Source: Escherichia coli (lineage in GTDB: Bacteria > Pseudomonadota > Gammaproteobacteria > Enterobacterales > Enterobacteriaceae). Taken from it: a DNA stretch of 64,000 nucleotides. A program made the position numbers and the translations under genes. Below are positions 40,028 through 44,938 of the stretch, piece by piece (the stretch's first letter is position 1; each line of letters begins with the position of its first letter). The notes under the pieces were generated by a model. That model saw only the letters and a program-made list of their open reading frames with translations. It was not told the DNA's origin and made no database searches. The stretch lies in assembly GCF_044324785.1 (NCBI RefSeq), contig NZ_CP172127.1, one strand, 5' to 3'.

Positions 40028-42451
40028 TTAAACCTTTTCGATCTGGACAAGATTGCTGTGCGACGGGTTTCCCTTTGCCAGCGGTGAAGGGCGGTGAGAG
40101 GTCAGAATATTAATACTGCCGCCGTGATCGACCCGGTCACCAAACATATCCGCTTTAAGCCACGCACCTTGCCCGATGGCGGTAACGCCAGGCAGAATAC
40201 GCGGAGTCACTTTTGCGGCAATCAGCATTTCTCCATTATTGTTAAATACCCGCACGGTATCGCCATGACGGATACCGCGTGCCTGAGCATCAATAGGGTT
40301 GATCCACACCTCTTGTGGGCAGGCCTGCTGTAACACATCAATATTGCCGTAGCTGGAGTGGGTACGCGCTTTGTAGTGGAAGCCCGTTAACTGCAGTGGA
40401 TAGGTTTTCCGCAGGGGATCGTCCCAGCCATCAAAACCTGGGGTATACGCAGGAAGGGGATGAATAATTTCATCTTTTTTCAATTCCCAGGTATCCGCAA
40501 TCGTCGCCAGTCGTTCAGAATAAATTTCGATTTTCCCCGAAGGTGTTTTCAACGGGTTTGCCTGTGGATCTTCACGGAATGCGCGGAAAGCGACGTAGTG
40601 TTCTTCCGGGCATTTTTTCTTAAAGATCCCGGTCGTTTTCATCTCCTCGTAGTCGGGCATCTCAGGGTTACGTTCCTTCGTTTTCGCATGGAGATATTTG
40701 ATCCATTCGTGCTGACTGCGGTCTTCAGTAAAGGTTTGATAAACGTCTGGTCCTAAGCGTTTGGCGACTTCGCTCAGCATCCAGTAGATGGGTTTGCGTT
40801 CAAATTTTGCTGAGGTTGCGGGTTGGGCGAGGATCACATAGCCCATATTCCCGGCAGATTCGTGAGAGATAAGGTCTTCTTGCTCTGTTGGCATCAGGTC
40901 GGGCAACAGGATATCGCAATACTTAGCCGAGGCAGTCATGAAGTGGTCAATGCCAACAATCATCTCGCACTTGCTGTCATCCTGAAGCACCTCATGGGTG
41001 TGATTGATGTCGCCATGTTGATTGATCAATGTGTTACTGGCGTAGCACCATAAAAACTTGATGGGGACATCCAGTTTTTCTTTTCCACGAACACCATCAC
41101 GGGTCGCGGTCATTTCCGTACCGTGGTCGATGGCATCTGTCCATGTAAAGACGGAAATCTGCGTTTTAACAGGATTCTCGAGCATCGGGAACCATTCTAC
41201 CCCCAGATCCCAGCTACCTTCGCGTACACCTGAGTTGCCGCCGTTTATGCCGACGTTACCGGTGAGAACGGAAAGCATGGCAATAGCGCGGGACGTTTGC
41301 TCGCCGTTGGAGTGTCGTTGTGGCCCCCAACCCTGACAAATATAAGCAGGTTTTGCTGAACCGATCTCTCGTGCCAACTGGATAATTTTTTCTGCCGGTA
41401 TGCTGGTGATTTTTGCTGCCCATTCCGGCGTTTTAGCTATGCCGTCAGGCCCTTCGCCCAGAATATAGGCTTTATAATGCGCGTTACGTGGTGCGTTGGC
41501 GGGCAGCGTTTTTTCATCGTAACCAACACAATATTTGTCGAGAAATGGCTGATCGACCATGTTTTCAGTAATCAGTACCCAGGCAATCGCACAGGCCAGT
41601 GCGCCATCGGTGCCTGGGCGAATTGGCAGCCATTCATCTTCACGCCCGGCAGCAGTGTCGTTATAACGTGGATCGATGACGATCATGCGTGCGTTTGAAC
41701 GTTCTCGGGCTTGCTCGACGTAGTAAGTGACACCACCGCCGCTCATCCGGGTTTCTGCCGGGTTATTTCCGAACATAACGACCAGTTTCGTATTGGCGAT
41801 ATCATCCGGGCTGTTGCCATCATTGGCACCGAACATATAACTCATTGCGGCACTGATCTGTGCGGTACTGTAGCTACCATAGCGACTGAGAAAACCACCG
41901 CAAGAGTTCATCAGACGGTACGGGACGTTTGAGTTGGTGATGTTTCCGCCATCTACGCCTGTTCCGTACAGGACATGTACAGCCTCATTGCCGTAATCTT
42001 TTAGGATCCGCCGAAGATTATCACTGATGGTATCCAGGGCTTCGTCCCAACTTATCCGTTCAAATTTACCTTCACCGCGCTTGCCGACGCGCTTCATGGG
42101 ATATTTCAGCCGATCAGGATGATTCATCCGTCGGCGGATAGAGCGCCCGCGTAAACACGCCCGAACCTGATGATTACCGTAAACGTCGTCACCTGTCGTA
42201 TCAGACTCCACCCAGTACACAGTGTCATCTTTCACATGCAAACGTAACAGACAGCGGCTCCCGCAGTTAACGGTGCAGGAACTCCAGACCGCTTTCTCTT
42301 CTACCGGTGCCTCTGCCGCTCGGACCATTTGGGAAAATGGCAGAGTGAAAGCACTGCTTGCCAGCGCGAGACTGCCAAGTGCGGAGGTTTTCATCAGACT
42401 TCTACGGCTGATTTCAGCCTTCATGAGCGCCTCTGTGGTATGGAATTTCAT
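40028..42451 (-). CDS. ynfF: Tat-exported molybdopterin oxidoreductase (DmsA paralog)
   Basis: ORF of 808 aa with twin-arginine signal SRRSLMK; start placed at second Met giving 807 aa. Confidence 0.9.
   Translation of the reverse strand: [807 protein letters not shown]

Positions 42452-44938: not shown

Follow-up and report, generated by a model that had tools for sequence, protein, structure and literature searches.

Tandem ynfE and ynfF of an Escherichia coli ynfEFGH-dmsD operon: very probably old paralogues evolving without detectable gene conversion

Results and Discussion

We are highly confident that the locus analyzed here, located in a window of 64,000 nucleotides of Escherichia coli DNA, is the chromosomal ynfEFGH-dmsD operon of the Escherichia coli type, and that its tandem genes ynfE and ynfF are old paralogues which have evolved independently and without detectable conversion. 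The pair is too diverged to serve as a recombination substrate and no conversion was found, so the useful result is a negative one. Because of this divergence and the lack of conversion, there is no reason to mark ynfE/ynfF as an unstable repeat. Earlier publications already describe the operon, its FNR/NarL-controlled promoter, the paralogy of ynfE, ynfF and dmsA, the identity of about 71%, the role in selenate and tellurate reduction and the dependence on DmsD.

Layout and identity of the operon

The coordinates of all features are collected in Table 1. Annotated E. coli genomes were collinear with the region and 99.1% identical to it, and for all five operon genes the NCBIfam and Pfam matches exceeded the curated cut-offs. 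YnfE matched NCBIfam NF041885 with 1796.9 bits (cut-off 1675) and YnfF matched NF041884 with 1772 bits (cut-off 1650), while the reciprocal scores of about 1478 remained under each other's cut-off. For the DmsA/YnfE subfamily model TIGR02166, the pair reached 1398 and 1282 against a cut-off of 777.7. Both proteins show the same domain order of PF04879 (Molybdop_Fe4S4), PF00384 (Molybdopterin) and PF01568 (Molydop_binding), all above the gathering score. The twin-arginine motifs of the pair read ISRRTLVKS and ISRRSLMKT, the cysteine motif of the FS0 [4Fe-4S] cluster lies at residue 56 and, as CTVNCGSRC, at residue 60, and VRACLRG is found in both. Family cut-offs, domain order, Tat signal with cysteine motif, and operon partners together place YnfE and YnfF in the DmsA/YnfE subfamily.

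The first-pass annotation, made from the sequence alone, had named the genes ynfE and ynfF with ynfG-ynfH-dmsD downstream, and both the NCBIfam cut-offs and the gene names that RefSeq gives in near-identical E. coli genomes agree with it. Its description of two consecutive, collinear Tat proteins 57 bp apart was likewise borne out by the open reading frames and the spacer, with collinearity extending over 801 aligned residues and 9 gap positions. RefSeq starts ynfF at the second ATG (42451), which yields 807 aa and a spacer of 60 bp rather than 57 bp. The hexamer AGTGAG precedes the ATG of ynfF, ynfE and dmsA alike. Neither a promoter scan nor Rfam revealed an internal promoter, a terminator or an RNA family in the 57-bp spacer. 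Downstream, the ynfF stop codon is separated from the ynfG start by 10 nt. None of YnfE, YnfF and DmsA has a solved structure in the PDB, where Rhodobacter DMSO reductases come closest.

Table 1. Features of the ynfEFGH-dmsD locus in window coordinates.
Feature	Coordinates	Strand	Description	Basis
ynfE	42512..44938	(-)	808-aa Tat-exported molybdoenzyme catalytic subunit (selenate/tellurate reductase subunit YnfE)	ORF, Pfam, NCBIfam, RefSeq of matching genomes
ynfE-ynfF spacer	42455..42511	(-)	57 bp; 3' end is the ynfF ribosome-binding context AAGTGAGTA-ATG	
ynfF	40028..42454	(-)	Second catalytic subunit (YnfF), paralogue of YnfE; 808 aa if counted from the first ATG	ORF, Pfam, NCBIfam, annotation
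ynfG	39400..40017	(-)	Four-cluster iron-sulfur electron-transfer subunit, DmsB paralogue	TIGR02951 DMSO_dmsB 265.6 (cut-off 214.1); Pfam Fer4_11
ynfH	38544..39398	(-)	Membrane anchor / menaquinol-oxidising subunit, DmsC paralogue	Pfam DmsC PF04976, E = 1e-126
dmsD	37887..38501	(-)	Tat proofreading chaperone for DmsA, YnfE and YnfF	NF008632 346 (cut-off 162)
FNR site TTGATatggATTAA	45038..45051	(-)	TTGAT-N4-ATTAA (plus strand TTAAT-N4-ATCAA), 9/10 consensus positions	Centred 106.5 nt before the start codon of ynfE
Predicted -10 hexamer TAGACT	45011..45016	(-)		Sequence and published -40.5 position

With regard to function, ynfE and ynfF would provide two alternative Tat-exported catalytic subunits, each with a molybdenum cofactor and an N-terminal [4Fe-4S] cluster, and the resulting enzyme would be a periplasm-facing, menaquinol-driven selenate/tellurate (DMSO-type) reductase. 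YnfE and YnfF have been described as selenate reductase isoenzymes (PMC12724226; PMC5203670), and selenate/tellurate (or S-/N-oxide) reductase activity has been reported (PMC5203670; PMC12724226; PMC12096835). DmsD probably acts as the chaperone of both signal peptides, to which its binding has been reported (PMC5203670).

Comparison with known systems

The closest system is ynfEFGH-dmsD (ynfEFGHI, b1587-b1591) of E. coli K-12, with which gene order, lengths and junctions match, including the 2427 nt of ynfE and the 60-nt gap to the RefSeq start of ynfF. The FNR site of K-12 is identical (TTGATATGGATTAA), as is its distance of 106.5 nt to the ynfE ATG. Compared to K-12-type strains, the window is 97.7% identical in the nucleotides of ynfE and 98.6% in those of ynfF; the divergence from K-12 of about 1-2% is mostly synonymous, with a few private amino-acid changes. 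The window departs by roughly 1% from all complete E. coli genomes; artificial mutation as the source of this difference was considered and dismissed, with 116 of the 147 differences in eleven genes falling on third codon positions.

Enterobacter cloacae, like most other Enterobacteriaceae, has a single-copy operon (srnABCD / ynfE-ynfG-ynfH-dmsD), in which a YnfE orthologue with 84-89% amino-acid identity is followed by ynfG, ynfH and dmsD. In these operons ynfF is missing, and ynfG follows ynfE after 10-13 nt. As in the window, speG-ynfC-ynfD lies upstream in close relatives, and the FNR half-sites are kept. The function of the single-copy enzyme has been demonstrated (PMC12724226). Salmonella enterica, in turn, shares the tandem arrangement of ynfE and ynfF, and its proteins are 87% (YnfE) and 91% (YnfF) identical to those of the window, with YnfE and YnfF being 71% identical to each other (PMC5203670). 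However, its spacer between the two genes is longer, at about 97 nt compared to 57 bp in the window, and a GC-rich hairpin lies within it.

E. coli DmsABC resembles the Ynf system in that DmsA has the same three domains, a Tat signal, the CxxNCxxxC...C motif, the VRACLRGRS block and membership in the TIGR02166 subfamily. The partners are of the same type (DmsB/YnfG and DmsC/YnfH), and the chaperone DmsD is common to both. In contrast, DmsA is encoded at another locus and is only 66-68% identical in amino acids to either Ynf protein, and the DmsA-specific model gives the Ynf proteins 1346 and 1316 bits, below its cut-off of 1600. The literature assigns YnfE/F a role in selenate/tellurate reduction rather than in primary DMSO respiration.

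Divergence of ynfE and ynfF

YnfE and YnfF share 71% of their amino acids in the pairwise alignment, and the codon-aligned nucleotides are 69.8% identical, the first codon position reaching 78%, the second 84% and the third 47%. Identity in 50-codon windows ranged from 0.59 to 0.78, which is uniformly about 70%, and the longest exact match was 17 nt. An independent repeat finder described the pair as a repeat with a 2484-nt period and 70-78% identity. The first-pass annotation had called the two proteins highly similar, pointing to shared peptide blocks, and both of these blocks, including the HPDRL block, are indeed present in both proteins; the accompanying picture of near-identical 2.4-kb repeats does not hold at this level of identity. 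Within the blocks, synonymous-codon identity was only 0.44-0.47, and they are kept in DmsA too, so that function, and not a recent duplication, is behind their conservation.

By the NG86 method, ynfE and ynfF differ with a dN of 0.20 and a saturated dS of 2.3, and either gene differs from dmsA with a dN of 0.23-0.25 and a dS of 2.8-3.0. The amino-acid identities of 70.9% (YnfE-YnfF), 67.6% (YnfE-DmsA) and 66.5% (YnfF-DmsA) show the three proteins to be nearly equidistant. In the orthologue sets of both ynfE and ynfF, dN/dS was 0.02-0.03, and each gene has been under purifying selection since the split.

Tests for recombination and gene conversion

At first sight, the arrangement lends itself to a reading as a near-identical tandem repeat subject to recombination and gene conversion, that is, to concerted evolution, in which the short spacer favours unequal exchange. 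The two genes stand in tandem on the same strand, collinear at the 2484-nt period, and several of their peptide blocks are strongly conserved. However, their identity is uniformly low. When codon columns were permuted, the mean longest identical run was 20.3 nt, longer than the 17 nt observed, and runs of at least 17 nt were reached in 91% of permutations. Shen and Huang reportedly put the minimal efficient processing segment for RecA-dependent recombination in E. coli at roughly 23-27 bp in 1986, a length which the longest ynfE/ynfF run does not attain. The conserved blocks argue against a recent homogenization as well, given their low synonymous identity and their presence in DmsA.

A synonymous scan statistic found no window of raised synonymous identity, the top 40-codon ynfE/ynfF window being under the permuted mean. 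Overall, synonymous-codon identity between the two genes was 0.483, somewhat over the 0.403 expected for independent draws from the codon usage of these genes. A codon preference common to both genes at conserved positions can explain this value, and a very old exchange between ynfE and ynfF may conceivably have left a trace in it.

Comparisons between genomes gave the same picture. The nucleotide identity between ynfE and ynfF was 0.693 inside this genome and 0.68-0.70 across genomes, and the sliding-window difference (within minus between genomes) had a mean of +0.002 and a maximum of +0.039. Quartets of this genome with three other ynfF-bearing genera (Salmonella, Citrobacter amalonaticus and Pseudocitrobacter) yielded 258/61/65, 284/49/50 and 230/64/54 sites of the orthology, conversion and control patterns. 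The conversion-type sites in these quartets equalled the control pattern in number and showed no clustering. Hence, ynfE/ynfF displayed none of three marks of concerted evolution: a within-genome excess of similarity, long or synonymous identity tracts, or an excess of sites grouping the paralogues.

Traces of a loss by recombination were sought in other genomes. In Escherichia whittamii, ynfE is followed straight by ynfG, with a junction identical to the ynfF-ynfG junction of this window, and AGATCGAAAA is common to ynfE and ynfF directly before the last two codons; taken together, these two observations make a one-unit deletion at that point conceivable. However, the ending of the E. whittamii gene (..EKV with the AAGGAG junction) also occurs in species that never show ynfF. 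A 3' end of E. whittamii ynfE derived from ynfF was thus set aside as undiagnostic, the ..EKV-TAA-GGAG junction being found in genera without ynfF. Among 5426 complete E. coli genomes, a megablast search with a synthetic ynfE-ynfG junction and the E. whittamii junction returned no full-length, high-identity match that would indicate a ynfE/ynfF fusion or a precise excision of ynfF (0/5426 for the precise ynfE-ynfG junction), the synthetic query being partly confounded by extension of the alignments through the 75%-identical 3' end of ynfF. Two records of at least 99% identity aligned with a smaller part of the query and came after full-length matches of 87.7%. The lesions commonly seen in ynfF are deletions inside the gene or IS1 events, and ynfE stays intact in these cases.

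The first-pass annotation had reasoned that a short spacer between near-identical repeats invites recombination, and had proposed a nucleotide-level alignment to look for conversion tracts. This alignment returned the uniformly low identity of an ancient divergence, about 70% throughout, with no runs over chance and no within-genome excess, which is the very result that the annotation had named as speaking against its own reading. We regard concerted evolution of the pair as extremely improbable, and return to independent evolution of two old paralogues.

Age and origin of the duplication

In a neighbour-joining tree, YnfF branched outside all sampled Enterobacterales YnfE, including those of Serratia and Budvicia, the YnfE clade being recovered in 99 of 100 bootstrap replicates and the YnfF clade in all 100; the tree was built on Kimura distances with five ynfF-bearing genomes, a setting in which a long-branch artefact for YnfF is formally still conceivable. 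The split of ynfE and ynfF would be about as old as the split from dmsA and would predate the radiation of the sampled Enterobacterales YnfE, its exact age being inferred.

The opposite reading takes ynfF as a recent tandem duplicate of ynfE, formed in an ancestor of Escherichia, Salmonella and some Citrobacter, which diverged very fast through neofunctionalisation and owes its basal position to a long-branch artefact. The distribution would fit, as the ynfF carriers among 80 loci were only E. coli, two Salmonella species, C. amalonaticus and Pseudocitrobacter, and ynfE is joined to ynfG with no ynfF between them in Klebsiella, Enterobacter, Kluyvera, most Citrobacter and Serratia. The branch leading to YnfF was also longer (0.19-0.23) than that to YnfE (0.135-0.174) if DmsA-like second copies served as outgroups. 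However, with DmsA of E. coli as the outgroup, the branches were nearly equal (0.177 for YnfE and 0.190 for YnfF), while a recent origin predicts roughly 0.06 versus 0.3. YnfE was monophyletic without YnfF at the 99% bootstrap given above, and the dN between E. coli and Salmonella was 0.042 for ynfF versus 0.071 for ynfE, meaning that YnfF orthologues are no faster now than those of YnfE. Furthermore, the signal peptide of YnfF is DmsA-like and not YnfE-like (also PMC5203670). A recent duplication is therefore, in our judgment, improbable.

Less improbable, and still unlikely, is an entry of ynfF as an ancient paralogue into the ynfE-ynfG-ynfH-dmsD operon by horizontal transfer or insertion in an Escherichia/Salmonella/Citrobacter ancestor, in place of tandem retention with many losses. 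The patchy taxonomic distribution and the deep branch of YnfF are in line with such an event. The ynfE-ynfF spacer also differs between genera in sequence and in length (57 to about 97 nt), with GC-rich hairpins in Salmonella, C. amalonaticus and Pseudocitrobacter and none in this window. Yet no donor lineage for ynfF was identified, and its GC content of about 0.50-0.53 resembles that of its neighbours. In the same genome pairs, orthologues were 78-80% identical in nucleotides for ynfF and 76-79% for ynfE, and because of this equal divergence any transfer of ynfF must be older than these genera. In addition, the loss of ynfF is ongoing, as seen from its pseudogenes in E. coli and its absence from E. 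whittamii, which makes repeated loss plausible.

Promoter region

The FNR-like site TTAAT-N4-ATCAA which the first-pass annotation placed upstream of ynfE was recovered, and it corresponds to the published site of the ynfEFGH-dmsD promoter. As a motif alone it is statistically ordinary, with 6 one-mismatch matches in the window versus 3.2 expected; its significance comes from position and conservation. The TTGA and TAA of the site were invariant in upstream regions of 13 Enterobacteriaceae (13 genera), and a match of at least 9/10 was present in 27 of 79 loci, mostly 101-108 nt upstream. FNR ChIP-seq found a single site at -40.5 and assigned the operon to category 1, directly activated by FNR (Myers 2013, PMC3688515). 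In the 13-genus promoter alignment, the T, the A and the final T of the predicted -10 hexamer were invariant, so that a TAnnnT hexamer is conserved at a distance fitting the published position; a generic sigma-70 scan found nothing. Transcription would start near 45004, putting the FNR site at about -40.5.

A single promoter upstream of ynfE, a probable FNR-activated class II promoter, would accordingly serve the operon: without oxygen, FNR bound at the site near -40.5 would activate it, and with nitrate present, NarL would repress it, as described in the literature. FNR activation or anaerobic induction of the operon and its repression by NarL and nitrate have been reported and re-confirmed (PMC6561318).

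Loss of ynfF and the start codon of ynfH

Most genera of the Enterobacteriaceae lack ynfF, and so does Escherichia whittamii. Among complete E. coli genomes, about 10% carry it as a pseudogene with two deletions; ST131 belongs to them, its deletions spanning nt 718-1297 and 2072-2345 of ynfF. The start codon of ynfH in this genome is ATT instead of the ATG of K-12, a change private to this genome, owing to which the operon may make an abnormal amount of the membrane anchor. Relaxed selection on ynfH in this strain was considered and found unsupported beyond the start codon, as the private amino-acid changes comprise only M1I and C134G.

A broader scenario would combine these points: the tandem pair as a relic of an ancient three-way split into DmsA, YnfE and YnfF, with a redundant and repeatedly lost ynfF, single-copy operons formed by exact excision of the 2.48-kb unit at AGATCGAAAA, and the ATT start of ynfH as a further sign of relaxed selection on the whole operon in some lineages. 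We put it forward only tentatively, and as a whole it is doubtful.

The loss of ynfF with the ST131 pseudogene, together with the changed ynfH start, may be of help where these genes serve as markers or expression targets, or in biosensor promoters. For strain EC958, transcript levels of ynfF have been reported, yet RefSeq annotates ynfF there as a frameshifted pseudogene.

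Operon layout and gene identity

The locus is a well-known operon, already described and correctly identified by the first-pass annotation, whose coordinates, collinearity, spacer length and Tat motifs were confirmed by the ORF list, the BLASTP alignment and the spacer sequence; the sequence blocks it had quoted as shared were likewise found in both aligned proteins. The Pfam domains Molybdop_Fe4S4, Molybdopterin and Molydop_binding occur in both YnfE and YnfF. Curated NCBIfam models identify the upstream protein as YnfE, at 1796.9 bits (cut-off 1675), and the downstream protein as YnfF, at 1772 bits (cut-off 1650); neither reaches the threshold of the other's model or that of the DmsA-specific model. 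The earlier length of 807-808 aa arises because the ynfF of RefSeq begins with the second ATG, which gives 807 aa and a 60 bp spacer.

Positions of the features discussed (window positions unless a locus from another genome, L-number, is given)
Feature	Position	Strand	Remark
ynfE	42512-44938	-	ORF list, 808 codons
ynfF	40028-42454	-	ORF list, 808 codons
ynfE-ynfF spacer	42455-42511	-	57 bp
ynfG	39400-40017	-	ferredoxin-type ORF, 205 aa; ORF list, confirmed by family match
ynfH	38544-39398	-	DmsC-type ORF; ORF list, confirmed by family match
ynfH first codon	39396-39398	-	ATT
dmsD	37887-38501/38510	-	DmsD ORF; ORF list, confirmed by family match
FNR site	45051-45038	-	TTGATatggATTAA
Predicted -10	45016-45011		
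Predicted transcription start	near 45004		
AGTGAG context	44939-44951, 42455-42466; L081:943-959		
Compared ynfE-ynfF spacers	L013:8440-8535, L015:8440-8510, L023:8437-8502		vs window 42455-42511
ynfF remnant	L082:5004-6573		E. coli Ecol_732; matches window 40028-42454
ynfF remnant	L086:13264-14833		ST131 EC958; matches window 40028-42454
IS1-bounded deletion	L083:5288-6326		E. coli MB07152
Direct ynfE-ynfG loci	L001:6001-9055; most of L002-L065		L001, Escherichia whittamii
DmsA-like second genes	L066:8624-11074, L068, L070:8579-10984, L072, L073, L076, L077, L078, L080:10092-12530		

The gene layout equals that of E. coli K-12. Positions 39900-45200 match many E. coli chromosomes annotated ynfD-ynfE-ynfF-ynfG at 99.1% identity; of the 5426 complete E. 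coli genomes, 5415 have a match. Strain 7/2 is collinear with the window over 31.7 kb without indels (98.85% identity), and the differences are natural, as 116 of 147 in eleven genes fall at third codon positions. Across 19900-64000, the window differs by approximately 1.15% from the closest complete genome over 31.7 kb, mostly at synonymous sites, which is unusually large given the 5426 genomes searched. From approximately 51.6 kb onward lies a Qin/dicB-type prophage region, rearranged relative to strain 7/2, which carries an IS66 element and an integrase there.

Divergence of ynfE and ynfF

The two genes had been described as near-identical copies, which was not borne out. While YnfE and YnfF are collinear over 801 residues (BLASTP: 71% identity, 85% positives, 9 gap positions), the codon-aligned genes share only 69.8% of their nucleotides, with 78%, 84% and 47% identity at codon positions 1, 2 and 3, and the longest exact match is 17 nt. 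A repeat tool independently reported a repeat with a period of 2484 nt and 70-78% identity. Identical amino acids are encoded by the same codon in only 51% of cases; without Met and Trp the share is 48.3%, where independent draws on the codon usage of these genes would give 40.3%. Synonymous divergence is saturated (NG86: dN 0.20, dS 2.3), and the values for either gene against K-12 dmsA, which encodes the paralogous catalytic subunit of dimethyl sulfoxide reductase, are dN 0.23-0.25 and dS 2.8-3.0. As proteins, the three lie at nearly the same distance from one another (E-F 70.9%, E-DmsA 67.6%, F-DmsA 66.5%). The block containing RRR..(H/N)PDR is kept in DmsA too, and codons 76-150, which reach the highest amino-acid identity (approximately 0.82-0.90), have a synonymous-codon identity of only 0.44-0.47. 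The common blocks thus reflect constraint on the protein (FS0 cluster region) rather than a recent shared origin of the DNA.

Gene conversion and recombination

Gene conversion between ynfE and ynfF was tested in three ways, by permutation of codon columns, by comparison with ynfF-bearing relatives and by quartet site patterns, and every outcome was negative. The longest identical run (17 nt) lies below the permuted mean of 20.3, with 91% of permutations reaching at least 17, and the best 40-codon window has 25/40 synonymous identities against a permuted mean of 26.6. For efficient RecA-dependent exchange, E. coli requires approximately 23-27 bp without a mismatch, and at 30% divergence such exchange is strongly suppressed by mismatch repair; a maximum of 17 nt is in line with a poor recombination substrate.

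The relatives were taken from a scan of species-representative genomes, and in the five ynfF-bearing genomes compared, E-F nucleotide identity was 0.693 within the genome of the window and 0.68-0.70 across genomes, the sliding-window difference averaging +0.002 and never exceeding +0.039. Quartet sites supporting orthology, within-genome similarity (conversion) and the control pattern numbered 258/61/65 for Salmonella arizonae, 284/49/50 for Citrobacter amalonaticus and 230/64/54 for Pseudocitrobacter, with no clustering of conversion-type sites in these three relatives. In Salmonella, too, the identity of YnfE and YnfF is 71% (PMC5203670), as predicted if the genes have evolved independently since before the Escherichia-Salmonella split. 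Neither a chimeric ynfE/ynfF gene nor a precise ynfE-ynfG junction was found in the 5426 complete E. coli genomes. The proposal that the pair forms a recombination-prone repeat is therefore refuted by uniformly low identity and the lack of a conversion signal; the lesions that do occur in E. coli are of other kinds (internal ynfF deletions and IS1 losses).

Decay, distribution and age of ynfF

At a coverage of at least 80%, ynfF is present in only 4739 of 5426 genomes, compared to 5111 for ynfE, and it falls below this coverage in 577 genomes in total. Approximately 10% of complete E. coli genomes carry an intact ynfE beside a ynfF remnant of 1570 bp, which is annotated as frameshifted and lacks two internal segments (ynfF nt 718-1297 and 2072-2345), both deletions shifting the frame. 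As EC958 has this allele, the ynfF transcript levels reported for it in 2025 (PMC12096835) belong to a gene annotated as a pseudogene in RefSeq. IS1 removed the region in other genomes; in MB07152, the deletion runs from ydfJ through to the last 326 nt of ynfF and takes ynfE and the operon promoter, while ynfG-ynfH-dmsD remain.

Beyond the window, 80 loci were selected by similarity to YnfE, a set without E. coli itself, E. albertii, E. fergusonii and S. enterica. In nearly all their Enterobacteriaceae (Klebsiella, Enterobacter, Kluyvera, Kosakonia, most Citrobacter and Escherichia whittamii), ynfE is followed after 10-13 nt by ynfG, and the only carriers of ynfF were two Salmonella species, C. 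amalonaticus and Pseudocitrobacter. The single-copy state of Enterobacter cloacae has been described as srnABCD (PMC12724226). The E. whittamii ynfE-ynfG junction (...GATCGAAAAGGTTTAAGGAGTAGCCCATG) equals the ynfF-ynfG junction of the window.

In a distance-based tree (neighbour joining, 47 proteins, K-12 DmsA as root), the YnfF clade lies outside the clade of every YnfE orthologue, including those of Serratia, Rahnella and Budvicia (bootstrap: YnfE 99/100, YnfF 100/100, both together 100/100). When DmsA serves as outgroup, the branches to E and F differ little in length (0.177 and 0.190) and both exceed half of the E. coli-Budvicia YnfE distance of 0.240, which argues against a recent duplication with a burst of change. 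Moreover, for the same pairs of genomes, the orthologues of ynfE have diverged as much in nucleotide sequence as those of ynfF, which means that ynfF has descended vertically from the ancestor of these genera or from an earlier one. Its patchy distribution could result from an old insertion or from many losses, the latter being made plausible by ongoing loss in E. coli.

The second large gene beside ynfE in Serratia, Rahnella, Ewingella and Budvicia is DmsA-like (Kimura distance 0.24 to E. coli DmsA) and not YnfF, which is a different kind of tandem catalytic-subunit arrangement. In Budvicia, it comes after a complete ynfE-ynfG-ynfH set.

Promoter and proposed mechanism

The FNR-like site noted upstream of ynfE is real and already published. 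It matches 9 of 10 consensus positions, is centred 106.5 nt upstream of the ATG, and is identical and equally distant in K-12. One-mismatch matches are not rare (6 in the window, 3.2 expected). Among 13 aligned Enterobacteriaceae upstream regions, the half-site cores TTGA and TAA do not vary, nor do parts of a TA(G/A)ACT hexamer approximately 22 nt downstream or the ribosome-binding region GGAGTGAG. A match of at least 9/10 occurs in 27 of 79 loci, mostly 101-108 nt upstream. Direct FNR activation of ynfEFGH-dmsD from one site at -40.5 was reported by Myers et al. in 2013 (PMC3688515), and reporter strains re-confirmed FNR activation and NarL repression (PMC6561318). From these positions, we infer the putative -10 and transcription start listed in the table. 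A generic sigma-70 scan gave no match, as expected for an activator-dependent promoter.

During anaerobiosis without nitrate, FNR activates this one promoter, according to the findings above and published work. The literature describes YnfE and YnfF as alternative catalytic subunits that are proofread by DmsD and exported by Tat. By paralogy with DmsABC, either may dock on YnfG and YnfH, the latter drawing electrons from menaquinol. In Salmonella, YnfE carries most of the selenate reductase activity (PMC5203670, PMC12724226).

Spacer, translation starts and ynfH

GC-rich hairpins occur in the ynfE-ynfF spacers of Salmonella, C. amalonaticus and Pseudocitrobacter and are absent from the shorter spacer of the window; the Pseudocitrobacter hairpin is followed by a T run and looks terminator-like. 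Directly before their start codons, ynfE, ynfF (in four genera) and dmsA have the motif AGTGAG in common, so this ribosome-binding context has been kept since the three genes diverged. In its signal peptide, YnfF is closer to DmsA than to YnfE.

The ynfH start codon is ATT in the window, whereas ATG stands at this position in K-12, in four more E. coli genomes and in 13 further Enterobacterales species. The surrounding 90 nt had an exact match in none of 5322 complete E. coli genomes, the best having one mismatch. C134G is the only other private amino-acid change of this YnfH, and the ATT start may lower synthesis of the membrane anchor.
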